From: Shigella phage CT01
Sequence record: OK018184
Reading direction: 5' to 3' (one strand)
Length of the DNA: 64,000 nt
Shown here in pieces: positions 2,557 through 52,306 of the stretch (positions within the stretch are counted from its first letter, which is position 1; the number at the start of each line of letters is the position of its first letter). Under the pieces are notes generated by a model that was not told where the DNA came from, searched no databases, and saw nothing but the letters and a program-made list of their open reading frames with translations. Position numbers and translations under genes: made by a program.

Positions 2557-3135
2557 CTGGCTCATCCATTCTTTACGAAGGTCAGCATTATCTCCCATGA
2601 GCATTTCAAAAAGCTCTTTCCAGTTCTCAGGAAGTTTAACAACATCATATACTGGGTTTTGAATCATCTCACGATATTCAGATTTTTCCAAAGAGCCAAG
2701 TCCTTTAATATAACGGATGCTATGTTTAGGTAGAGCATCTTTGGCACTCTCATATTCAGCGACTGTATAAAACCATTCTTGTTTTTTACCGACCTGAGCG
2801 ATGATTACAGGAGTTTTGACAAAGCGAATTCTTCCTTGTTCAAACAGTTCTGGCCAATTACTAAAAAATCCGAGCAGAGAAGGATAAATGCTTCCTAGAC
2901 CATCATGGTCAGCATCAGTCATAATAGCAATATTATGATAATTCAAGTTTTCAGCTTTTTCACCGAGAACTAATCCAGTGATTGCGCAAATATCAAACAG
3001 TTCTTTGTTTTTAAGCATGTCAGCATATGACATGCCCCAACTGTTGAGAACTTTACCACGTAATGGATAACCACCGTGAAGTTCTTTATCACGAACATCA
3101 ATAAGATATCCGATAGCCGAATCACCCTCAGTCAA
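2554..3135 (-). CDS. 60: DNA topoisomerase II large subunit, C-terminal fragment (T4 gp60-equivalent region), separated from the N-terminal part by the insertion
   Basis: 193-aa ORF with ...IMTDADHDGLGSIYPSLLGFFSNWPELFEQGRIRFVKTPVIIAQVGKK... matching T4 gp60; DHDG codons are contiguous (no 50-nt bypass gap); begins at an internal Met inside repeat copy 1. Confidence 0.75.
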   Translation of the reverse strand: MTEGDSAIGYLIDVRDKELHGGYPLRGKVLNSWGMSYADMLKNKELFDICAITGLVLGEKAENLNYHNIAIMTDADHDGLGSIYPSLLGFFSNWPELFEQGRIRFVKTPVIIAQVGKKQEWFYTVAEYESAKDALPKHSIRYIKGLGSLEKSEYREMIQNPVYDVVKLPENWKELFEMLMGDNADLRKEWMSQ

Positions 3136-3227
3136 GAAAAGAGTAGTATCAGCATCTTTACCACAAAGATTCGCTTTAATATGTTTATGAACCTTAGCTT
3201 TAGAAGCCTTTTTAGCTGCTTTAGTTT
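2856..3227. repeat. direct repeat copy 1 (372 bp, identical to 3901..4272) within the topoisomerase large-subunit coding sequence
   Basis: Exact identity read from sequence; both copies encode TEGDSAIGYLIDVRD...SLLGFFSN. Confidence 0.9.
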
Positions 3228-3380: not shown

Positions 3381-3509
3381 GAAAATCACTTTAGTCGTAC
3401 GGAAAGCGCGCAATAATACGGGTTTTATCTCAAAGGCGCTATCACCGCCGCCATGCCGATGAACTGTTGACTATGCTTTTAGCGGATAAACCACGTTAAG
3501 AGCATAAAA

Positions 3510-3786
3510 ATGAAGGCGTTCGATCTCCACCGTATGGCATTTGATAAAGTGCCTTTTGATTTCCTTGGCGAAGTTGCACTACGTAGTCTTTATACCTTTG
3601 TACTGGTTTTTTGTTCCTCAAAATGACCGGAAGACGCGGTGTGCGACAGATGTCGCTGTTTGAAGTGTTAATCATTCTCACGCTGGGTTCAGCGGCGGGA
3701 GATGTGGCGTTTTATGATGATGTGCCGATGGTGCCGGTACTTATCGTCTTTATCACTCTGGCGTTGTTATACCGCCTGGTAATATG
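3510..3786 (+). pseudogene. ycaP: 5' fragment of a ycaP-like (DUF421 membrane protein) gene, divergent from ycaO', with a frameshift
   Basis: Encodes MKAFDLHRMAFDKVPFDFLGEVALRSLYTFVLVF then, after a 1-nt frame change, MSLFEVLIILTLGSAAGDVAFYDDVPMVPVLIVFITLALLYRLV; divergent arrangement with ycaO as in E. coli (recalled). Confidence 0.55.
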
Positions 3787-3871
3787 ATGGCGAGCTGGCC
3801 TGGTCGAAACTCAATAACTCCAACATGACGGAATTTGAGTTCTTTATGGAGCTACTAGTTGAATGGACTAT

Positions 3872-5419
3872 TCAGCAATGCACATTAATTGATTTTAAAA
3901 AATTACTAAAAAATCCGAGCAGAGAAGGATAAATGCTTCCTAGACCATCATGGTCAGCATCAGTCATAATAGCAATATTATGATAATTCAAGTTTTCAGC
4001 TTTTTCACCGAGAACTAATCCAGTGATTGCGCAAATATCAAACAGTTCTTTGTTTTTAAGCATGTCAGCATATGACATGCCCCAACTGTTGAGAACTTTA
4101 CCACGTAATGGATAACCACCGTGAAGTTCTTTATCACGAACATCAATAAGATATCCGATAGCCGAATCACCCTCAGTCAAGAAAAGAGTAGTATCAGCAT
4201 CTTTACCACAAAGATTCGCTTTAATATGTTTATGAACCTTAGCTTTAGAAGCCTTTTTAGCTGCTTTAGTTTCTGCTGCTTTTTCTGCCGCTAATTTACG
4301 AGCCAAAGCAGCTTCAATAATCGGCATTAGAATTGCTTCATTATTTAGAATAGCACGTGAAATCTTTTTAGCATCAAGTTGAATATGACTACGGATTTCA
4401 CCAAATGGAGAAGTCAAACGCTCTTTAGTTTGAGAATCAAATCGCATGTTTTTCATATCACGGACAAACATAACGATAGTCAAACATTCTTTAACGCGTG
4501 CTTTAGTCACATCAATTTTGAACTTACGTTTGATTTGTGGAATAAGGTCTTCACAAATATCATCCATAACACAGTCAATGTGATGGCCACCATTCTTAGT
4601 GTGAATGTTATTCACATAAGTTAATTGACGAAAACCATCCGGTGAACGACCAACCGCAATAGAGCAATTTTCTTGTTCTTGAACGATAGCATGCTCATCA
4701 TATTGGCGTGCATATTTCTTAAAATTACCCTGAACCTTTTTACCATTAAAGGTAAATTGAATATCAGGATAAACTACTGCAAGTGTCTGGAGACGATCTA
4801 GTGTAATGTCAAGATAAACTTGAGATAGCTCATTAGTTTCAAATGACATAAAATCAGGAATGAAAGTAACGCGAGTTCCTTTCCATTTTCCAGGAATATC
4901 TTCCCATGATTTATTTTCCATGCCGTTTGAACAACGAACCACAATATTATTTTGACCGTCGCCAGTTTCACCGACAAACATCACAGAAAAAATGTTAGTT
5001 AAACTAGAACCAACACCGTTCATACCGCCAGTGACGCGTTCTTTATCATCACCAAAGTTACCACCTGCTTTTGGAATAGTCCATGCAGCAACTGGACCAG
5101 GAATTTCTTCACCAGTAGGTGTTTTAACCATCGCCTGTGGAATACCACGACCGTTATCTTCAACTGTTACTTGATTGTTTTTGATAGTAACATTAATTTT
5201 ATTTGCGAATTTAAACTTAGTACGAATACCTTCATCTACCGAGTTATCGATAATTTCATCAATAAGCTTAACAAGACCAGGTACATACTGAACACTTTCC
5301 CATTTACCAAACAGAAAGCGCTCATGCATTTCATTAGCTGAAGAGCCAATGTACATGCCGCTACGCTTTTTGATATGTTCAATATCGCTCAGAATTTTAA
5401 TTTCATTCTTAATCATCAC
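3872..5419 (-). CDS. 39: DNA topoisomerase II large subunit (gp39), N-terminal 515-aa product truncated by the insertion (ends ...SLLGFFSN-FLKSINVHC)
   Basis: GyrB-like ATPase and TOPRIM sequence; the last 8 codons are read from junction sequence. Confidence 0.85.
   Translation of the reverse strand: MMIKNEIKILSDIEHIKKRSGMYIGSSANEMHERFLFGKWESVQYVPGLVKLIDEIIDNSVDEGIRTKFKFANKINVTIKNNQVTVEDNGRGIPQAMVKTPTGEEIPGPVAAWTIPKAGGNFGDDKERVTGGMNGVGSSLTNIFSVMFVGETGDGQNNIVVRCSNGMENKSWEDIPGKWKGTRVTFIPDFMSFETNELSQVYLDITLDRLQTLAVVYPDIQFTFNGKKVQGNFKKYARQYDEHAIVQEQENCSIAVGRSPDGFRQLTYVNNIHTKNGGHHIDCVMDDICEDLIPQIKRKFKIDVTKARVKECLTIVMFVRDMKNMRFDSQTKERLTSPFGEIRSHIQLDAKKISRAILNNEAILMPIIEAALARKLAAEKAAETKAAKKASKAKVHKHIKANLCGKDADTTLFLTEGDSAIGYLIDVRDKELHGGYPLRGKVLNSWGMSYADMLKNKELFDICAITGLVLGEKAENLNYHNIAIMTDADHDGLGSIYPSLLGFFSNFLKSINVHC
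3901..4272. repeat. direct repeat copy 2 (372 bp, identical to 2856..3227)
   Basis: Exact identity read from sequence. Confidence 0.9.
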
Positions 5420-5468
5420 TTATCCTCGTTTGGTTTCGGGAATATTATACTCCGGTAATCATAAAGCT

Positions 5469-5486
5469 AAAGGCCCGAAGGCCTTT
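5469..5486 (-). terminator. UUCG-tetraloop hairpin (aaaggcccgaaggccttt)
   Basis: Perfect inverted repeat; on the minus-strand RNA the loop is UUCG, the stable hairpin type common in T4 intergenic regions. Confidence 0.4.
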
Positions 5487-5746
5487 TATTTAAAACGGAT
5501 AGTCGAATCCTTGAAGAATAGACCAGAACATACTGTTCCTTCTACTTTCTGCCCAGTAGGTCCAATAGCACGAAATCCAGTATGCTGGAAATCATTTTCA
5601 GAGCAACCGAACCAATTATATCCAGTGATTTCAATATTAGTAAAACCACTTGAAGACAAAACTTTAGTTGCATTATCAGCATCAGTACATCCTACTAAAG
5701 ACACTGCTAATACTAATGCTGCGATAGAACGATTAATATATTTCAT
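5486..5746 (-). CDS. small predicted lipoprotein
   Basis: 86 aa; signal peptide with lipobox LVGC (MKYINRSIAALVLAVSLVGC). Confidence 0.6.
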   Translation of the reverse strand: MKYINRSIAALVLAVSLVGCTDADNATKVLSSSGFTNIEITGYNWFGCSENDFQHTGFRAIGPTGQKVEGTVCSGLFFKDSTIRFK

Positions 5747-5927
5747 AATTACCCTTTAAGCAAGTCGTAAAATCCACCATTCACATGCTTAGGAGCGGAA
5801 ACTAACCGAATAGCAATCCGATGACAATCAGGACATACATCAGTATCCCTTTCAGAAATTTTCTTGATTTTTTCGTATTCTTTTGCACAGTCTTTGGATT
5901 GACATTTATAATCATAAAGAGGCATAA

Positions 5928-6347
5928 TTATTCCTTAAAGTGAGCTTTCAACATCTGATACAAGGACCATGCTTGTTCATTATTTTCAATAGTAACTTTC
6001 ATTACCGGGAATTCTGTGAAATCTTCTATTTGTTCTTGCTCTTCCTGCTCTTGTTCTTCAGCAGCCTGATATGGATTTTCAACTTCATCAAAGAACCCAG
6101 CTTCGTTAGTAGAAAGCCAGATAAAGTTTTCGCCAAGGATATCACCATATGTTGAATATCCAACTGTGCCAGTAGATGTCACAATTTTAGTAGGACGCCC
6201 GTAATAGTCAACATCTAAAATTTTAAAAGGTTCCATACCTAAACGGCGTGCATAGATTCCGTTATAAGTATGGTCTTTAATAAAAGCTTCTTGGGCTTGT
6301 TTATTTTTAAATTGATACCATTTATTAACTTCAAATTTAATAGCCAT
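5928..6347 (-). CDS. acidic early protein (possibly goF-like)
   Basis: 139-aa ORF with acidic [10 protein letters not shown] stretch; position between gene 39 and motB/dexA. Confidence 0.5.
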
Positions 6348-6562: not shown

Positions 6563-6734
6563 TACAATTTCCTCATTAATTGAACATTGGAGCGGTGCGT
6601 TTCAGAAGAGTATCAGCACCTTTAACGAATTATCCATTTTATTCTTCAAGTTGTTTTCTGTATCAGTAGTTGATATTGATATAGTACCATAATCAACTAC
6701 TGATGTATATAGTTTTATGAAAAAATTTTAAACT

Positions 6735-12079: not shown

Positions 12080-12682
12080 TTATAGATTAAATCCTTCAAA
12101 ATCAAGAGTATAGATAGTGTATGTTGAATACTTTTTATATTCATATCTATCCGCAATTCTAAATACACTTCCAGCTGGTATCATTACTTCTTGTTCATCT
12201 GAAACTAATTCCATATTACGATAGCGATGGCTATCTGGAAACTTAAAACTTGGACTATATTCTTTACAACGTAGAGCTTTTATAGCATACTCCTGAAAAT
12301 TAAATACCATAGGAGCTTTGAATTCAAAAATAACTTGTGTATTGTATTCTAATCCAGAAGCAAAATGTAGAGCTATATTTTTATCATATGAAGCTGATAC
12401 TACTTTATCAAATGTAATAATATCAATTCCTTGATTTAATACCTGCTTAGTCTCAACTGGAACACCTCTCCAAAGAGGTTTATCGTTTGGAACCAAACGA
12501 GATTTGATTATTTCATTTAACCAAGAGTGGTCGTCTGGCTTATTAGTAATACAATGAATTAAAAGTTCAATTTCAGATAAATTGAATCCTTCAGAAAGTA
12601 ATTCTTCACGAATAGAAGCACGCGCTGATGCATCCATTGATTTGATTTTAAAATCTTTTAATTGCATTGCTGAATATTTCAT
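12080..12682 (-). CDS. modA: ADP-ribosyltransferase ModA
   Basis: 200-aa ORF, size and position as T4 ModA; paralog of the adjacent ORF. Confidence 0.7.
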   Translation of the reverse strand: MKYSAMQLKDFKIKSMDASARASIREELLSEGFNLSEIELLIHCITNKPDDHSWLNEIIKSRLVPNDKPLWRGVPVETKQVLNQGIDIITFDKVVSASYDKNIALHFASGLEYNTQVIFEFKAPMVFNFQEYAIKALRCKEYSPSFKFPDSHRYRNMELVSDEQEVMIPAGSVFRIADRYEYKKYSTYTIYTLDFEGFNL

Positions 12683-13302
12683 TCAACTACCTCAATATCA
12701 TACACTTTAAATGTTCCAAATGAATCGTGTAATTTTTCTTTTGAAATAGAAGTTATTTTATACTTTCCAATTGGAATCATCCATTCTTGTTCACGCACAA
12801 TCATCATTAAGTTATCAGTACGTTCTGAATCTAATCCATCAGTATCTTCATATGTATACTTAAACTCAGTATTAGGAGAAGAAAGTATAATATCGCTGAT
12901 ATGGTCAGAGTAATTAAAAGCTTTATCAGTTTTTAAGCGAAATATTATTTCAGTGAAATACTCAACATAAGAAAAACCACACGCTGTGTGCAAACTAGTA
13001 GTAAATGAATCTACCCTGTTCGTTGAAAACACTTCTCCAACTTGTAAATCTTTAATGAGTTCTTTTGTCGATTTTGATATACCACGATATAGCTGATAAG
13101 GTGATTTAGTTAAATGCTTTTTAACGATTTTATTCAATTGCCGGTGAAGAGCTTCATTCTTTTTGGCTTCCATACATTGCCAAAGAACTGACTGTTCAAA
13201 GTCAGTAAATTTTTCACAGACCTTTTTATACATATCATATTGAAAATCAACACTTTCAGCTTTTATAGATAACTGTTCAACATCTACAAGATTAATAATC
13301 AT
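12679..13302 (-). CDS. modB: ADP-ribosyltransferase ModB
   Basis: ORF 12679..13314 in the track; the internal ATG gives 207 aa as in T4 ModB. Confidence 0.65.
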   Translation of the reverse strand: MIINLVDVEQLSIKAESVDFQYDMYKKVCEKFTDFEQSVLWQCMEAKKNEALHRQLNKIVKKHLTKSPYQLYRGISKSTKELIKDLQVGEVFSTNRVDSFTTSLHTACGFSYVEYFTEIIFRLKTDKAFNYSDHISDIILSSPNTEFKYTYEDTDGLDSERTDNLMMIVREQEWMIPIGKYKITSISKEKLHDSFGTFKVYDIEVVE

Positions 13303-24584: not shown

Positions 24585-24965
24585 TCACTTAGTCAAATTT
24601 TTTACACATGAATTATAAGAATTTACTACATACTCCATCGGAGCATTTTTACCGGTACGCCATTGGTAATTATTAGCCCAATTAGCCCAAAGCTCAGCGC
24701 AGTAGTTTTCAATTTTTTCTTCGCGTGTAATCACATCTGAATTGCGATATGCTTGGGCAGATTCATCTGGACGAATAGCTTCGTCAAAATTCGCCTGCAT
24801 TTGTTCTACTGTCTGTTTTGGAGCCTCTTTATAACACTTAACATTAGGATTATAAAATTTGCTTGAACAGTTTACAATTTTTCCTACATCAGACTGATTT
24901 ACTACCGGTCCTTGAGCTACACAACCAGTAAGACCCAATGCAATAACCAAAATAGCGATTTTCAT
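24585..24965 (-). CDS. predicted lipoprotein
   Basis: ATG at 24963..24965; MKIAILVIALGLTGC signal and lipobox; the track ORF 24585..25124 extends upstream through junction sequence from a GTG. Confidence 0.6.
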   Translation of the reverse strand: MKIAILVIALGLTGCVAQGPVVNQSDVGKIVNCSSKFYNPNVKCYKEAPKQTVEQMQANFDEAIRPDESAQAYRNSDVITREEKIENYCAELWANWANNYQWRTGKNAPMEYVVNSYNSCVKNLTK

Positions 24966-25019
24966 TTCATTCTCCAAATCCGCATCAGTTGATAGTTGTA
25001 TAGTACCATGGAAGAACAG
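24870..25019. repeat. direct repeat copy 1 (150 bp, identical to 25138..25287)
   Basis: Exact identity; covers the lipoprotein gene 5' end, RBS and promoter -10. Confidence 0.9.
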
Positions 25020-25137
25020 ACCTAATTGAACACCCAGCGTTCCATTAGTATTCATATGAAGATTATCATCAATTTTTATTGATACTTTACCATTCATGTG
25101 AATAACAGTATTAGATTCAATCACATCTCTGACTATC
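25020..25137. other. 118-bp segment between the direct repeats, origin unknown
   Basis: Open on the minus strand (VIESNTVIHMNGKVSIKIDDNLHMNTNGTLGVQLG), closed in all plus frames. Confidence 0.6.
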
Positions 25138-25233
25138 GTTTACAATTTTTCCTACATCAGACTGATTTACTACCGGTCCTTGAGCTACACAACCAGTAAG
25201 ACCCAATGCAATAACCAAAATAGCGATTTTCAT
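25117..25233 (-). pseudogene. truncated duplicate of the lipoprotein gene 5' end (38 codons)
   Basis: MKIAILVIALGLTGCVAQGPVVNQSDVGKIVN then DSQRCD-stop from junction sequence. Confidence 0.6.
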
Positions 25234-25287
25234 TTCATTCTCCAAATCCGCATCAGTTGATAGTTGTATAGTACCATGGAAGAACAG
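25138..25287. repeat. direct repeat copy 2 (150 bp)
   Basis: Exact identity to 24870..25019. Confidence 0.9.
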
Positions 25288-25300
25288 GGATGTAAACAGT
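25262..25300 (-). promoter_or_regulatory. T4-type early promoter (intact copy)
   Basis: Reverse strand GTTTAC (gtaaac 25292..25297) ... TACTATACA. Confidence 0.5.
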
Positions 25301-25385
25301 TTTGTGAAAAAATTTTTAATGAATTCCAGAGGTCCAGAATCATCTATTTTTCCTAAGTATAGATTTATATTACTTGTATGAAAAA

Positions 25386-25401
25386 GGGACCCGGAGGTCC
25401 C
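25386..25401 (-). terminator. tetraloop hairpin downstream of gene 43
   Basis: gggacc-cgga-ggtccc inverted repeat. Confidence 0.4.
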
Positions 25402-25414
25402 CAGATTTATTCTA

Positions 25415-28111
25415 TCAGCCAAACAGGAAGTCTAACGAAGCTTTTTCCTCATAGTCCATACCTGCCGATTCACACATACCCGCAAGCGGTTTAACAAACG
25501 ATTTTTGGAACAAAGTTGAGTAGTCAATCCAAGACAGTACATCAGAACGAATTTCTTTTGGAAGTTCCGTACCCGACGGCCAAGCAATGCACTTATCACC
25601 AAATGGATTTCCTTCACGTAATGGAAGAACCATTACCTTATTTCCATCCAAAATTGGAGCTACACCTAAACCGTTAACAGCTCGACGATAAGTTAGCACC
25701 CCACGAATATGGAACGGGCATTTAAACCCTGGCCAACCTTTATCATCATATTTCGCTATATCGTTCGCGGTTTTTACTTCAGCAATAACTTTATAGTCAA
25801 GTTGACGATATTCTTTCTCAAAGTTCTTGTAGTATTCTTGGACAGACTCTTCACCTTCCTGAAGAATACGACGAATACTTTCTTCGAGAGCTTCTTGTAC
25901 TGCTTTTGGTGTTGAACTCTGTTGAGTTTCCATACCCATGATTTTTAGATGTGGTTCAGCAAATCGCTTATCTTCCATATCATAAACGTTCAGAGCATAA
26001 CGTTTTTTCGCTTTCCAAAATCCACCAACACCCTTTGAACCGAGTGGAGGGCAAGAAATAGCTTCACGGTCCATATGCATCAGATGCTCGCGGTTATTCA
26101 TATAATCACATAACTCACGATATGCAACATCAATCATAGGTTCCATCTTTTTCTTACCAAACTGATTCATGAATTCAACTAAATCATTTTGTTCTTTAAA
26201 GCGGTCAAGACCTACTTTTTCAATTACTTTATCTACACAAACATATACCGAATCAGTATCACCTGCTGCGATGAAATCTTCACCATCAGTTCCACACACT
26301 TTATTCAGATATTCATTAATTTTACGAGCAATCCACTGAATACCAACTTGACCAAAAATTGTGATAGCAGTAGCATTTCGCAAATCATAGTAACGGAAAT
26401 GAATATTACCAAGAGCACCATAAAGACTGTTGATAAGAATTTTACGGTTCAGCTGATTTGTGTTAGCAAGTGTAGCTGCTTTTTCACATTCTTCGATCAG
26501 ACTATTAAGAACAGATTCAGTGTAATTCGATAATTCGTTTAAGAAATCATCACTGAACTTAACATATCGTTCAACTTCTGGTTTAGTTGAGCAAGACCCT
26601 GCACCTTTCATAATAATCTTTTTAATAGCTTCGGCATTCATTTCTTCAGCGAACATTTTCTTTTTCCAATCTTTACGCTGGAAAAATACTTTAGCGATTT
26701 CCTTTGGAATGATACCTTCTTGGTGCTTATCATACATCCATCCATTCGGAGAGCAAGAATATTCATCACTTGGCTTAGGAGCTGTTCCTGCGATATATTC
26801 ATGAATTGGATGAACTTTAAACTGTCCACGAATAGTCTCAGGACTAATGTTAACCTGACGAATAATGCTAGGATACAGAGATGTCAAGTCAAAACTCATA
26901 ATGTATCGACGGGCAATCGGTTTAGGTTCAAACACAAATGCGCCTGGAAAACTCTGCTTAACGTGCGAACCTTGTTGAGGAATAACCTTATGTTCACTTT
27001 TCAGTGAGTTAAAAATAATAGCATCCCAAGTTTTAATAGGACTCATTACACCAGAAAAAGGCATTTTAGCATAATAAGACATACTTAAAACTAGATCGAT
27101 AAACCCACGAATTTTATCAATTGCTTGAACTGATTCTACGTCAATAATGTTATAACTAATGTATCGTTGATGATTAGTCTCACGAAGTTTATTAATAGGA
27201 CCATCGTACGGCAATTTACCTTTTTTGGTTTCATGTTGAGCAACTGATTCCAAAGAGAATGATGGCAAATTAGTAAATGCGAATTTCTTGTACAAATCTA
27301 AATAATCAAGAATAGATACGCCATCAATAGAATAAATTTCTTTGCTACCGTACATATTTTGAATTAGTTTAGATTTTACTCGACCGATTGGAGAGAAGCG
27401 TTTCATACTACGTTCACCAAGAACCATTTTAACGCGATTCATGATATACGGAACGTCAAATCCCTCAATATTCCAACCAGTAAAAATAGCAGGTCGTTTC
27501 TGTTCCCAGAGATTAATATATTCCATGAGCATATCACGCTCATTATCAAATGGCATATAAATTACTCGGTCAAGAATTTCTTGAGGAACTTCATCACCAC
27601 CTTCACAGTCAAGTTTAGCAGCTAACTTTGCATCCCATTTTGATACTGAACCGTACATTGAATTCAACAAATCAAAGACGTAAAAACGGTCGTCAATTGA
27701 ATCATAATGAGTGATAGCATCAATTTCATATTCTGCTTTCATTGGGTCAGGAAATTTATCGCCAGTAACCTCAATGTCACAGTTAGCTACACGAACAAAT
27801 TTTCGGTCATAAACAATTTCTGAACCATATGTATCACTGATATAAGCGAGTTTAAAATCGTTCATACCAAGAGCTTCGAGACCGATGTCTTCCATTCGCT
27901 TCATCCAGTCTCGTGCATCTTTCATTGATGGAAATTTTTGAGGAGCGCAATTTTTACCGTAAATGTCTTTGTACTTTGACTCTTCCTTACAATGCCTAAA
28001 CATAGTCGGAAGATATTCTACTTCACGAGTACGTTCCTTTCCGTTTTCATCAATATAACGCTCAACAATATTATTTCCGACTGTTTCGATAGAGATATAA
28101 AATTCTTTCAT
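25415..28111 (-). CDS. 43: DNA polymerase gp43 (family B, with 3'-5' exonuclease)
   Basis: 898 aa, exact length of T4 gp43; polymerase motifs including YGDTDS. Confidence 0.95.
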   Translation of the reverse strand: MKEFYISIETVGNNIVERYIDENGKERTREVEYLPTMFRHCKEESKYKDIYGKNCAPQKFPSMKDARDWMKRMEDIGLEALGMNDFKLAYISDTYGSEIVYDRKFVRVANCDIEVTGDKFPDPMKAEYEIDAITHYDSIDDRFYVFDLLNSMYGSVSKWDAKLAAKLDCEGGDEVPQEILDRVIYMPFDNERDMLMEYINLWEQKRPAIFTGWNIEGFDVPYIMNRVKMVLGERSMKRFSPIGRVKSKLIQNMYGSKEIYSIDGVSILDYLDLYKKFAFTNLPSFSLESVAQHETKKGKLPYDGPINKLRETNHQRYISYNIIDVESVQAIDKIRGFIDLVLSMSYYAKMPFSGVMSPIKTWDAIIFNSLKSEHKVIPQQGSHVKQSFPGAFVFEPKPIARRYIMSFDLTSLYPSIIRQVNISPETIRGQFKVHPIHEYIAGTAPKPSDEYSCSPNGWMYDKHQEGIIPKEIAKVFFQRKDWKKKMFAEEMNAEAIKKIIMKGAGSCSTKPEVERYVKFSDDFLNELSNYTESVLNSLIEECEKAATLANTNQLNRKILINSLYGALGNIHFRYYDLRNATAITIFGQVGIQWIARKINEYLNKVCGTDGEDFIAAGDTDSVYVCVDKVIEKVGLDRFKEQNDLVEFMNQFGKKKMEPMIDVAYRELCDYMNNREHLMHMDREAISCPPLGSKGVGGFWKAKKRYALNVYDMEDKRFAEPHLKIMGMETQQSSTPKAVQEALEESIRRILQEGEESVQEYYKNFEKEYRQLDYKVIAEVKTANDIAKYDDKGWPGFKCPFHIRGVLTYRRAVNGLGVAPILDGNKVMVLPLREGNPFGDKCIAWPSGTELPKEIRSDVLSWIDYSTLFQKSFVKPLAGMCESAGMDYEEKASLDFLFG

Positions 28112-40336: not shown

Positions 40337-40807
40337 TTAATCATGTTTCCACACCCCATCGGTATTTGACCAAAGTCGCTGATTATCTGAACCTCGCCAC
40401 AGCTTTTTGGTCGGAAGATTTTTCTCATACTTCCCATCAATAATAACATCAACATATTTAAGCATTTCTAGTTGTTTAATATCTTCAAACTTGTATCCTG
40501 TCCACAACCAAATGCTTTTATTGGGATAAAGATTTTTTACTGTTTGAACGATGCAATGAATAACATCTCGGTTATCAGGATAGAGAGGGTCTCCTCCAGT
40601 TATAGTTAATCCTTCTATATAATCATTATTCAAACATTCAATTAATTGCTCTAGTGTTTCACCGGTGAATGGAACGCCATTTCTAGCATTCCATGTTGAT
40701 TTATTATAACATCCTTCACATTTATGCAAACACCCCGTAACGAAAAGAACGACCCTGCATCCAGGGCCATTCACAAAATCACAGGGATAAAATCTATCGT
40801 AATTCAT
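40337..40807 (-). CDS. nrdG: anaerobic ribonucleotide reductase activase NrdG (radical SAM)
   Basis: 156 aa; cysteine cluster CLHKCEGC. Confidence 0.85.
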   Translation of the reverse strand: MNYDRFYPCDFVNGPGCRVVLFVTGCLHKCEGCYNKSTWNARNGVPFTGETLEQLIECLNNDYIEGLTITGGDPLYPDNRDVIHCIVQTVKNLYPNKSIWLWTGYKFEDIKQLEMLKYVDVIIDGKYEKNLPTKKLWRGSDNQRLWSNTDGVWKHD

Positions 40808-42621
40808 TGGTGTTTAACCCTATGCATGATTTCTTTATTTTTGCCGAGATTAAATCCGCGTTCATTCGGATTTCCCAAATAACCACAAGTTCTTCTTATT
40901 GTGTTCATCTTTTTAGGATCAGTTTCTCCACAAATAGAACAAACAAATCCGTTTTCAGTAGGAGTCATTTCATGGGTACTTCCACACGTAAAACATTTAT
41001 CTACTGGCATGTTAACACCAAAATAATCTAAATGTTGTGCAGCATAATCCCATACAGCCTCAAGACCTTTTAGGTTATTTTTCATATCAGGAAGTTCAAC
41101 ATAAGAAATGTGACCGCCTGTCGCAATGAAATGATATGGGGCTTCGCGAGAAATCTTTTCAAACGGAGTAATATTTTCTTCTACTGAAACGTGGAAACTG
41201 TTAGTGTACCAGCCTTTATCAGTAACATCCTTTACACTTCCATATTTTTCGGTATCGAGTTTACAGAAGCGATAACACAGGTTTTCAGCAGGTGTAGAAT
41301 ACAAGCTAAAAGCAAAACCAGTTCTTTCAGTCCACTGCTTAAGATGTGCATTCATTTTAGTTAAAATTTCCTGTCCAATATCACGACCGACAAGAATATT
41401 CAATTCGTGAATACCAATGTATCCTAGGGATACTGAACTTCTACCGTTTTTAAATAACTCAATTATATCATCATCGGGTTTAAGACGAACCCCGAATGCA
41501 CCTTCTTGGTAAAGAATAGGAGCAACAGTAGCTTTAACTCCTTTTAATGAACTAATTCTACACATCAATGCTTCAAAACACAAATCCATTCGTTCATTGA
41601 ACAATTCGGCAAATTTCTGTTCATTGAACTGTGTTCCAATATAAGAATCTAATGCAATACGAGGAAGATTCAGTGTTACAACGCCAAGATTATTACGTCC
41701 ATCAAGAATTTCATTACCAGTCGAATCTTTCCATACACTTAAGAAACTGCGGCAACCCATTGGAGAAACAGGAACAGATGAACCGGTGATAGCTTTATTG
41801 TTCTTAGCCGAAATGATGTCAGGATACATTCTTTTACTTGCACACTCTAGAGCAAGCTGCTTAATATCATAGTTCGGATCGTCTTTATAAAGATTAACAC
41901 CTTCTTCAACGAACATAACAAGTTTAGGAAAAATAGGAGTTATCCCATCGCGGCCAAGACCTTTAATGCGATTTTTCAGAATTGCTTTCTGAATCATTCG
42001 TTCAGTCCAGTCAGTTCCCGTACCAAATGTAATTGTTACAAAAGGAGTTTGTCCGTTTGAACTAAAGAGAGTATTTACTTCATATTCATAAGCTTGGAAT
42101 GCATCGTATACGTCTTTTTCTGTTTTAGATTGGGCATAATTCAACGCGTCAGCGATTTGCCATTTTTCTGCGTCCTCAATATGTTTTGCATAGGTGCGTT
42201 TAACATAAGGAGAAAGTACTTTATCTACATTCGCAAAAGTCGTTCCGCCATATTGATGAGAAGCAACCTGCGCAGTAATTTGTGCCATAATTGCAGTAGC
42301 AACACCGATTGATTTAGGAGTTTCAATCTGTGCATTACCGAGCTTAAATCCATTCTCAAGCATTCCTTTTAAATCTACTAAACAGCAATTAGTAAATGGA
42401 AGAGCAGGGGAATAATCAATATCATGGAAATGGATAATTCCGCTTTCATGCGCTTTCATAATAAAAGACGGGACCATATTTTTGGCAATGTGTTTAGACA
42501 CAATACCAGCCATAAGGTCCCGTTGAGTTGGAAAAACACGAGAATCTTTATTAGCATTCTCGTTTAAAAGGTCTTTATTAGTTTTATGAATTAATCCTTC
42601 AATTTCTTTTTCAATCGTCAT
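40804..42621 (-). CDS. nrdD: anaerobic ribonucleotide reductase NrdD, uninterrupted (no intron)
   Basis: 605-aa continuous ORF; C-terminal glycyl-radical and CxxC zinc ribbon (CFTCGSTHEM...CSICG). Confidence 0.9.
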   Translation of the reverse strand: MTIEKEIEGLIHKTNKDLLNENANKDSRVFPTQRDLMAGIVSKHIAKNMVPSFIMKAHESGIIHFHDIDYSPALPFTNCCLVDLKGMLENGFKLGNAQIETPKSIGVATAIMAQITAQVASHQYGGTTFANVDKVLSPYVKRTYAKHIEDAEKWQIADALNYAQSKTEKDVYDAFQAYEYEVNTLFSSNGQTPFVTITFGTGTDWTERMIQKAILKNRIKGLGRDGITPIFPKLVMFVEEGVNLYKDDPNYDIKQLALECASKRMYPDIISAKNNKAITGSSVPVSPMGCRSFLSVWKDSTGNEILDGRNNLGVVTLNLPRIALDSYIGTQFNEQKFAELFNERMDLCFEALMCRISSLKGVKATVAPILYQEGAFGVRLKPDDDIIELFKNGRSSVSLGYIGIHELNILVGRDIGQEILTKMNAHLKQWTERTGFAFSLYSTPAENLCYRFCKLDTEKYGSVKDVTDKGWYTNSFHVSVEENITPFEKISREAPYHFIATGGHISYVELPDMKNNLKGLEAVWDYAAQHLDYFGVNMPVDKCFTCGSTHEMTPTENGFVCSICGETDPKKMNTIRRTCGYLGNPNERGFNLGKNKEIMHRVKHQ

Positions 42622-43091
42622 TTTAAACTCTTTCTAAGCTGCTTCTTAAATGAAGCTATTAATTGTGTTTTAGTGTCAGATTCATTATATTCAAATCCTC
42701 TTTGAAGCATCTCAGCCATCATTTCCTCTTTTCCTAAACGAGAAAATTCCTTTGATTTATCTCCAACGAAGTTAGGGTGAATATTATTTTGGGTGTAATC
42801 GGATTTTAAATAAGTAAGTAAATTTTCTAACCATTCAAGATAATCAACACCTTGTCCCTTTAAGCCAGAACGATTAAATTTATGTTTCATTTGACCTTCT
42901 GCAGCATTGCAGAGATTACATAGCAACCCACGTACCTTTCCTGCTTTTGGTCCATTTAATTCATGGTCATGGTCAAGGTGATTAGCTTGAACATCAGGAT
43001 TTAGTTCTCGTTGGCAAATTAAGCATTTACCGTTTTGTGCATTATAAAATTTTTGTTTTTCTTCTTTGTACAATTTGCCAGTCAATAACAT
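42618..43091 (-). CDS. 49: endonuclease VII gp49 (Holliday junction resolvase)
   Basis: 157 aa; zinc motif CLICQ...HLDHDH...CNLCN; length as T4 EndoVII. Confidence 0.9.
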   Translation of the reverse strand: MLLTGKLYKEEKQKFYNAQNGKCLICQRELNPDVQANHLDHDHELNGPKAGKVRGLLCNLCNAAEGQMKHKFNRSGLKGQGVDYLEWLENLLTYLKSDYTQNNIHPNFVGDKSKEFSRLGKEEMMAEMLQRGFEYNESDTKTQLIASFKKQLRKSLK

Positions 43092-43356
43092 AATAAACCC
43101 TTACCTTAAATAGATAAGGGTATTTATTATTTTCAAGTATTAAAATGCTCGTTCAGAAAAAGAAATTTGAGTTTCAAGAAGTTCTCGTTGGCAAATTAAG
43201 CATTTACCGTTTTGTGCATTATAAAATTTTTGTTTTTCTTCTTTGTACAATTTGCCAGTCAATAACATAATAAACCCTTACCTTAAATAGATAAGGGTAT
43301 TTATTATTTTCAAGTATTAAAATGCTCGTTCAGAAAAAGAAATTTGAGTTTCAAGC
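43003..43356. repeat. tandem duplication, 2 x 177 bp, spanning the gene 49 start and upstream hairpin
   Basis: 43003..43179 and 43180..43356 identical except for the last base. Confidence 0.9.
43140..43268 (-). pseudogene. duplicated gene 49 5' end (30 codons) fused in frame to the last 12 codons of the upstream gene
   Basis: MLLTGKLYKEEKQKFYNAQNGKCLICQREL-LETQISFSERAF. Confidence 0.6.
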
Positions 43357-43781
43357 CATTCAATATATTCTGCTGCAGCTTGCATCAAATTTCCTTCATA
43401 GCCATCGTTATTTTCTTGTGCAGCTAATTTAGCTAATGCATATGAAATACGTTCACCCTGAAAAGCGGCTTTAGGTTTATGAATAGCTTGATCAACTCGT
43501 TCTACAACTTCTTCAATTTCGCCATTTTCTACTGATTCAGTATTCCACAAGCACCAATACGTAATTGGCTTATCATAGATGTTAATAACCTTTCCGTCAG
43601 AAAGTTCAATTTCAATAATTCCAGTATCAGGTTCTATATCATCTTCACATTCTTTTGCAAGTTCACGAACTTTAAAGACAGTACCTGCACTAAGTTCCGG
43701 CCAGTAATTACACAACCCTTTATCAGCACGATTAATTCTAAACCACTTATCTACTGTAATCATGTCCCATCTCCATATCAA
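43317..43781 (-). CDS. hypothetical protein
   Basis: 154-aa ORF upstream of gene 49. Confidence 0.5.
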   Translation of the reverse strand: MIWRWDMITVDKWFRINRADKGLCNYWPELSAGTVFKVRELAKECEDDIEPDTGIIEIELSDGKVINIYDKPITYWCLWNTESVENGEIEEVVERVDQAIHKPKAAFQGERISYALAKLAAQENNDGYEGNLMQAAAEYIEWLETQISFSERAF

Positions 43782-43886
43782 TTATGTCATTTATTGTAGG
43801 TTCATTATATACTGTTTCTTCATCAGTGTAAACCGGTTCTTCCGGCTCTGGCTCTACTGTTTCCCATCTAGCCGCCCACCAAGGTT

Positions 43887-51879: not shown

Positions 51880-52143
51880 TTATTTTAATGTTTGCCAAAT
51901 TTTTACTGCTTCGCGACGAGATACTTCTACGGCGCCAAGTTCTATAGCTTTTTGGCGTCGCCGAGCGTGTAAGTCATAATGTTTAATGCGTTTATCTTGA
52001 AACCAAGAACGTTTCATTCCTATTGCTTCTGCCATTTCATGAAGCTCTTCAATATCTCCATCAGTGAACATATGACAATTTTTAGTTGGATGACCGCGAA
52101 GTTTCCATCCATGATTCATTAAAACATCTACGTAAACTGTCAT
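51880..52143 (-). CDS. hypothetical protein (intact copy)
   Basis: 87-aa ORF MTVYVDVLMNHGWKLRGHPTKN... Confidence 0.55.
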   Translation of the reverse strand: MTVYVDVLMNHGWKLRGHPTKNCHMFTDGDIEELHEMAEAIGMKRSWFQDKRIKHYDLHARRRQKAIELGAVEVSRREAVKIWQTLK

Positions 52144-52306
52144 TGATTCTTCTCCAAATACATTCCTATTGCTTCTGCCATTTCATGAAGCTCTTCAATA
52201 TCTCCATCAGTGAACATATGACAATTTTTAGTTGGATGACCGCGAAGTTTCCATCCATGATTCATTAAAACATCTACGTAAACTGTCATTGATTCTTCTC
52301 CAAATA
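52015..52306. repeat. perfect tandem duplication, 2 x 146 bp, spanning the 5' end of gene 51880..52143
   Basis: 52015..52160 identical to 52161..52306. Confidence 0.9.
52140..52289 (-). pseudogene. duplicated 5' fragment (43 codons) of gene 51880..52143 ending in YLEKNQ-stop
   Basis: Second ATG at 52287..52289 inside repeat copy 2. Confidence 0.55.

Follow-up and report, generated by a model that had tools for sequence, protein, structure and literature searches.

A 177-bp tandem duplication at the pin/gene 49 junction of Shigella phage CT01 is one of four exact duplications in a 64-kb window and probably an assembly-joining artefact

Introduction

Spontaneous tandem duplications are classically known in T4. 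Those of the rII region are kilobases long and were recovered under selection. Head-to-tail repeats of this kind are expected to be unstable, as T4-type phages possess a very efficient homologous recombination, by which direct repeats of 146-372 nt should be collapsed. Duplications accompanied by short inserts copied from elsewhere are the mark of template switching of the FoSTeS/MMBIR type, a mechanism which, to our knowledge, has not been described for T4-type phages.

Repeats can also enter a sequence record when contigs are joined, and some scaffolders may mark an unresolved overlap with a single 'n'. Among the documented scaffolding artefacts are overlapping contigs which are left unmerged, the so-called "negative gaps" (PMC7736779). 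Contig ends overlap at variable sites, and in simple de Bruijn assemblies this overlap has a length of exactly maxK (PMC10914622).

For the class of T4 late genes to which gene 49 belongs, regulation by sequestration of the ribosome binding site (RBS) in an RNA structure has been reviewed (PMC2988022), and the 1988 study of T4 gene 49 by Barth et al. (Genetics 120:329, as cited in PMC2988022) is among the references given there. The review lists "soc, e, 39, 25 and 26" as genes with a sequestered RBS, and the reference cited for "39" is the gene 49 paper, so that "39" is probably a misprint for 49.

In this study, a 177-bp repeat at the start of gene 49 in Shigella phage CT01 (sequence record OK018184) is compared with these systems. 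The window, i.e., the whole stretch of DNA that was analyzed, comprises 64,000 nucleotides.

Results

Organization of the pin/gene 49 region

The window covers the stretch from rIIB to e in a T4-like phage of the genus Tequatrovirus, with nearly all genes located on the minus strand. Apart from the duplications described below the sequence is clean, as it contains no ambiguous bases and 120 ORFs, and 94% of it is coding. Around the repeat, the genes follow each other on the minus strand in the order pin, gene 49 and nrdD. The features of the region are as follows:

40804-42621, minus strand: nrdD, 605 aa, intact (ORF)
42618-43091, minus strand: gene 49, recombination endonuclease VII, 157 aa, intact (PF02945, 8e-22; PF09124, 1.5e-33; annotated as endonuclease VII in relatives)
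43003-43178: copy 1 of the repeat, adjoining the intact gene 49 (exact 176-nt match to 43180-43355)
43097-43121, minus strand: hairpin copy 1, 10-bp stem and 5-nt loop (RNA fold -18.5 kcal/mol, z -3.3; match in a scan for terminator-like structures)
43098-43105, minus strand: Shine-Dalgarno sequence of gene 49, GGTAAGGG, in the 3' arm of the hairpin, 6 nt before the ATG (fold)
43121-43128 and, as second copy, 43298-43305, minus strand: late-promoter-like box AATAAATA (read from the sequence)
43140-43268, minus strand: fusion ORF, 42 aa, gp49 residues 1-30 followed by the last 12 residues of pin (MLLTGKLYKEEKQKFYNAQNGKCLICQREL + LETQISFSERAF)
43179: junction base 'a', a non-templated filler (differs from both flanks and from all 13 relatives)
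43180-43355: copy 2 of the repeat, adjoining pin and transcribed before copy 1 (exact 176-nt match)
43274-43298, minus strand: hairpin copy 2, ahead of the 42-aa fusion ORF (terminator-like scan and fold)
43317-43763, minus strand: pin, encoding the PinA inhibitor of the host Lon protease, 148 aa from the ATG, intact (PF10465, 1.6e-48; annotated as pin in relatives)

Each unit contains, in minus-strand order, the last 12 codons and the stop codon of pin, the late-promoter-like box, the hairpin, the Shine-Dalgarno sequence and the start of gene 49, of which codons 1-29 and two nucleotides of codon 30 lie in each 176-nt copy. The AATAAATA box agrees in seven of eight positions with the T4 late-promoter consensus TATAAATA and would thus represent a putative late promoter. 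It abuts the 5' arm of hairpin copy 1, a placement by which late transcripts might start without this arm, and is kept in T4 and five relatives. The hairpin, the Shine-Dalgarno sequence and the gene 49 start are identical to T4 base for base, and in the annotation of SA21RB a terminator is placed at the position of the hairpin. When a segment of 311 nt was folded, both hairpins formed independently.

The unit therefore carries the same module as the T4 gene 49 control system, including the placement of the Shine-Dalgarno sequence within the 10-bp stem, on its 3' side. This likeness explains what the unit contains, but not why it is duplicated. The 42-aa product of the fusion ORF scores 20.2 bits against the Endonuclease_7 profile, which is below the cut-off of 23.6, and possesses only two of the zinc-site cysteines, C23 and C26.

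The surroundings of gene 49 vary among relatives. Some of them (L001, L002, L004 and L007, about 2782-2958) carry an extra gene of 58 aa (PF23945, DUF7279) between pin and gene 49. Its insertion point is the pin stop codon, which corresponds to about 43139-43141 of the window, and at its 3' end it is similar to the pin tail of T4 and of Escherichia phage ECO07P2, in which this tail is longer. The pin/gene 49 junction is thus marked as a natural site of modular exchange. In L002 and L009 (about 3471-6333), nrdD is interrupted by a 256-aa ORF for a GIY-YIG (SegE-like) homing endonuclease, and in L006 a 276-aa NUMOD3 ORF follows nrdD (5281-6111). Furthermore, two contigs with a T4-type gene 49, namely L007 (ERZ724095 NODE_1, 353,259 bp) and L009 (GCA_025336695.1 JAODFN010000001.1, 489,447 bp), have two to three times the length of a T4-type genome and may be concatemeric or chimeric assemblies.

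Extent and junction of the repeat

Tandem Repeats Finder (TRF) reported a single array at 43003-43355 with a period of 177, 2.0 copies, 100% matches and a score of 706. In agreement with this, a scan for exact matches found 43003-43178 to be identical to 43180-43355 over 176 nt at a spacing of 177, an exact repeat of a length which cannot arise by chance. The original prediction had described 43003-43179 and 43180-43356 as identical except for the last base, and this was borne out, as position 43179 is 'a' and position 43356 is 'c'. Its reading of the content of the unit, i.e., the first 30 codons of gene 49, the RBS, a hairpin and the last 12 codons of the upstream gene, likewise held against sequence, ORFs, fold and Pfam matches. 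The same is true for the 42-codon in-frame fusion ORF attributed to the upstream copy, which was recovered at 43140-43268, and for gene 49, which retains its own start and all of its 157 codons at 42618-43091.

The base at 43179 does not match either flank, as 43002 is 't' and 43356 is 'c'. Among the 13 relatives compared, gene 49 has CTA as codon 30 (in SA21RB, TTA), and wherever the pin context was found, its codons were TGG-CTT, so that no allele would provide a template for the 'a'. An origin of this base from the allele of another strain is thereby ruled out, since all 13 relatives agree with the flanks. With no template in flanks or relatives, the insertion consists of 176 duplicated nucleotides plus one filler base. 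The junction, which reads TTTCAAG-A-AGTTCTCG, shows zero microhomology and a single non-templated base, and the sequence TTTCAAGAAGTTCTCG is diagnostic of the duplicated form. No mobile element or homing endonuclease was found in the inserted 177 nt, which are a local copy plus 1 nt, and the 42-aa fusion is the only new ORF.

Distribution in relatives and public collections

Over 30-50 kb, ECO07P2 is the most similar public genome with 98.2% identity; no identical record was found. A total of 683 phage records match the region 42600-43800. Among the best 60 of these 683, all have a single copy, as the matches span 1024 bp, corresponding to 1201-177. Using a 101-nt query across the junction, none of the 447 matching phage records was found to span it. 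Two matches with "98% covered" belong to single-copy genomes, which were matched in permuted order over 176 bp. The exact junction gave no match in IMG/VR, in metagenome contigs or in 185,579 GTDB genomes. Additionally, an exact look-up of the 42-aa fusion product in a protein/contig collection retrieved no record, and the exact-protein look-ups of three chimeric ORFs from the window were all negative. The gp49 protein itself occurs in 738 blocks, too many to tell strains apart. The 177-bp duplication is thus private to this sequence record. The original prediction had implicitly taken the repeat as real, i.e., as part of the structure of the phage genome, and this part is left unsupported, as the repeat occurs in no relative listed and no public contig. 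Further evidence against it is provided by three more exact duplications in the window, which had not been mentioned and of which one encloses E. coli DNA together with degraded patches.

Four exact duplications in the window

A scan of the whole 64-kb window for exact repeats identified four direct duplications and no inverted ones:

Event (a): 2856-3227 identical to 3901-4272, 372 nt exact, spacing 1045
Event (b): 24870-25019 identical to 25138-25287, 150 nt exact, spacing 268
Event (c), the gene 49 repeat: 43003-43178 identical to 43180-43355, 176 nt exact, spacing 177
Event (d): 52015-52160 identical to 52161-52306, 146 nt exact, spacing 146

All four have the common form A-B-A, with B being 673, 118, 1 or 0 nt long. 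As a control, the colinear 68 kb of phage ime09 were scanned in the same way, and no exact repeat longer than 25 nt was found. Events (a)-(c) are single-copy in ime09. Event (d) is single-copy in P922, which is otherwise 100% identical, in fPS-90 and in the other 13 records listed (535 bp, corresponding to 681-146).

Event (d) is a perfect tandem of 146 bp, which is not a multiple of 3. Its unit takes in the end of a 72-aa ORF together with 43 codons from the start of a DUF4031 gene, and a truncated DUF4031 copy of 49 aa results. The junctions of both (c) and (d) show zero microhomology, with the 1-nt filler in (c).

The units of (a), (b) and (c) each span the site of an optional insert in some relatives, these being mobA/60.1 of T4 for (a), ORF048 of RB18 for (b) and the 58-aa DUF7279 gene at the pin stop codon for (c). 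An extension of this rule to all four duplications proved wrong for (d), as its two genes adjoin each other in 154/154 records with the cassette. A gene boundary lies within each of the three simple duplications, and every gene is thereby spared. The chance probability of this is P about 0.05, a value too weak to separate an artefact from a real event, and both models explain the result.

The repeated unit of event (b) includes an early promoter and an RBS together with 32 codons from the start of the imm.1/DUF5481 gene. Its B segment is a 118-nt internal fragment of the optional gene RB18 ORF048, which is otherwise absent from this phage and is found at the same map position in RB18, DalCa, G8 and others. 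The sequences to which the fragment is joined adjoin it in no relative, and the positions at which it differs from RB18 are clustered in the last 12 nt. A 101-aa ORF with an Imm.1 fragment results at 25117-25422. In addition, a six-copy family of early-promoter-like sequences of about 60 nt (TTGATAGTTGTATAGTACCAT...) was observed at 6670, 25257, 39526, 50395, 52462 and 56058, upstream of small gene cassettes; one of its copies forms the end of unit (b).

E. coli DNA inside the topoisomerase gene

Event (a) is located inside the gene of the topoisomerase II large subunit, which is of the unsplit type and encodes 605 aa in ime09. The event cuts this gene into ORFs of 514/515 aa and 193 aa, and these fragments overlap the position at which the gene is naturally split in T4. 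The natural 39/mobA/60 split of T4 itself is ruled out as an explanation, as the window gene is unsplit by type and the insert is E. coli DNA. The B segment is composed as follows, from left to right:

Part 1: 32 nt continuing the topoisomerase gene, about 84% identity, with one indel and in-frame stops
Part 2: 23 nt of intervening sequence
Part 3: 504 nt of the E. coli ycaO 5' end and intergenic DNA, 99.6% identity
Part 4: a 64-nt deletion between GATGGCG repeats
Part 5: 70 nt of ycaP, 100% identity
Part 6: 45 nt, an inverted imperfect copy of the phage modA/modB junction (12646-12689)

In total, E. coli ycaO-ycaP DNA accounts for 573 nt of the 673-nt insert, and this segment is present in 5426/5426 E. 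coli genomes. The inverted modA/modB patch has an identity of at most 91% to any of 183 phages, by which an exact copying of the degraded patches from another strain in a mixed sample is ruled out. At the edge of (a), a PstI site (CTGCAG) and new stop codons are present, of which two of three frames are also stopped in the native sequence.

The two kinds of DNA in this insert differ in accuracy, as the phage-derived patches reach 82-91% identity and the host-derived DNA 99.6-100%. For accurate host DNA beside inaccurate phage DNA there is no biological rationale. Phage DNA with sugar-modified cytosine is known to be basecalled poorly (PMC12838424). The insert would fit an unpolished chimeric long read, in which the glucosyl-HMC phage DNA was badly called and the unmodified host DNA was called well.

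Discussion

The gene 49 repeat is private and exact and is one of four such duplications, whose junctions lack microhomology and in some cases contain foreign or degraded filler. It probably represents unmerged or chimeric contig ends which were joined in assembly, and the repeat is then most likely absent from the phage DNA. Three observations favor this reading: no relative listed and no public contig has the repeat, three similar duplications lie in the same window, and one of these contains E. coli DNA and degraded patches. Moreover, zero microhomology together with a filler base is the pattern of blunt concatenation and is not usual for slippage or recombination; we know of no end joining in this host-phage system. 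The case is built from the finished sequence rather than from reads, and is therefore indirect throughout.

Two overlapping contig or read ends would both have crossed the pin/gene 49 junction. In an assembly or scaffolding step these ends may have been abutted instead of merged, leaving the 176-nt overlap and one placeholder or erroneous terminal base. The same abutting would have taken place at a minimum of three further sites of the genome, and at two of these the unmerged ends may have had chimeric or low-quality tails. Sites of optional inserts are places where a reference-guided ordering would miss the overlap of contigs, which would also explain the bias towards gene boundaries.

With described negative-gap artefacts, the duplications share exact head-to-tail copies, which are private to one record, occur several times per assembly and lack microhomology at their junctions. 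A placeholder base or junk may also lie between the copies in such artefacts, comparable to the filler base and the foreign segments seen here. In contrast to simple de Bruijn contig ends, the overlaps vary (146, 150, 176 and 372 nt) and do not reveal a fixed k, and event (a) additionally needs a chimeric host/phage end. A more idiosyncratic pipeline would thus be required, and only the simplest version of the artefact is ruled out. The clean rest of the window speaks against an artefact. So do the sparing of genes and the overlap of the topoisomerase fragments with the split position of T4, which would both be expected under selection for viability, but the optional-insert sites account for these two as well. 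Another version, in which the record was rotated to the T4 origin and the repeat marks the old contig ends, is weakened, as the window starts about 100 nt inside rIIB and not at the T4 origin convention.

A genuine, very recent and near-neutral tandem duplication in the phage stock, formed by illegitimate, homology-independent joining or by a replicative template switch, appears doubtful. The sequence is of high quality, exact copies fit a recent event, tandem duplications are classical in T4, both hairpins fold independently, and pin and gene 49 are both spared, as are the genes at all three simple duplications (3/3). Such a repeat, however, would need to exist alongside three further private duplications, one of them with host DNA in the topoisomerase gene, while being found in none of the 60 relatives listed out of 683 and in no public contig. 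Its junction has a filler base and no microhomology, and direct repeats of 146-372 nt should quickly be lost by T4-type recombination unless they are selected. With the classical rII duplications it shares the head-to-tail direct repeat in a T4-type genome. It differs from them by its size class of 146-372 nt, by the lack of an evident selection, by the occurrence of four events at once and by the lack of homology at the junction. That all four events are real, in which case the lineage would have gained duplications of a template-switch type independently of homology, three of the four at optional-gene sites and one capturing E. coli DNA, is improbable. Events (a) and (b) do resemble FoSTeS/MMBIR products in their short inserts copied from elsewhere and in the microhomology at some junctions, TAT(G/T)GAG and TATC(G/A)TTT(A/T)CAAT. 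Unlike in such products, however, phage patches of 82-91% identity lie beside a host segment of 99.6-100%, which a single polymerase would not generate, and event (c) lacks a templated insert.

An adaptive duplication, which would act on the dosage or timing of gene 49 by an extra late promoter and hairpin or by a functional 42-aa peptide with half of a zinc site, is hardly credible. It could draw on the whole conserved regulatory module in the unit, which is identical to that of T4, and on the repression by RBS sequestration reported for this late-gene class (PMC2988022). The duplication did not recur among the matches listed (60 of 683 relatives), though, the peptide is only a sub-threshold Endonuclease_7 fragment, the unchanged proximal module should leave late gp49 expression as it is, and similar duplications at unrelated genes in the window argue against a benefit specific to this locus. 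It is also very improbable that the four rearrangements are deliberate or made in silico, i.e., an engineered construct or simulated structural variants. Four clean direct duplications in one window and a PstI site with new stops at the edge of (a) could be read this way, but no design is suggested by edges which are fuzzy and degraded, by the 64-nt deletion or by the inverted patch with its imperfect match, no vector or marker sequence is present, and the stops in two frames are already native.

If the repeat were real, its functional effect should be small, since both full-length genes and the proximal promoter, hairpin and Shine-Dalgarno sequence of gene 49 are intact. The pin gene would end normally, and the distal module could express the 42-aa peptide. 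Read-through transcripts from upstream would carry two complete hairpins instead of one, and with two terminator-like hairpins early read-through into gene 49 might fall slightly. Late synthesis of gp49 should be normal, as the proximal AATAAATA box, the hairpin, the Shine-Dalgarno sequence and the ATG are unchanged.

Under the preferred reading, that of joined contig ends, the record behind the window probably contains at least four joining errors, by which about 1.6 kb of the 64 kb would be spurious. The artefacts would include host DNA in the topoisomerase gene and spurious small ORFs, namely the 42-aa gp49'-pin' fusion, the 49-aa DUF4031 fragment and the 101-aa ORF. Annotation pipelines and comparative studies would misread such artefacts as novel genes, gene splits or horizontal transfer, and the main value of the finding therefore lies in quality control. 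If, on the other hand, all four events were real, the set would be more worth studying than the gene 49 repeat alone. It would offer a rare direct view of illegitimate recombination and of the capture of host DNA at modular T-even sites, with a single-gene topoisomerase turned into two overlapping fragments near the genes 39/60 split of T4, and would provide a snapshot of how T-even genomes come to gain, lose and split genes in a modular way.
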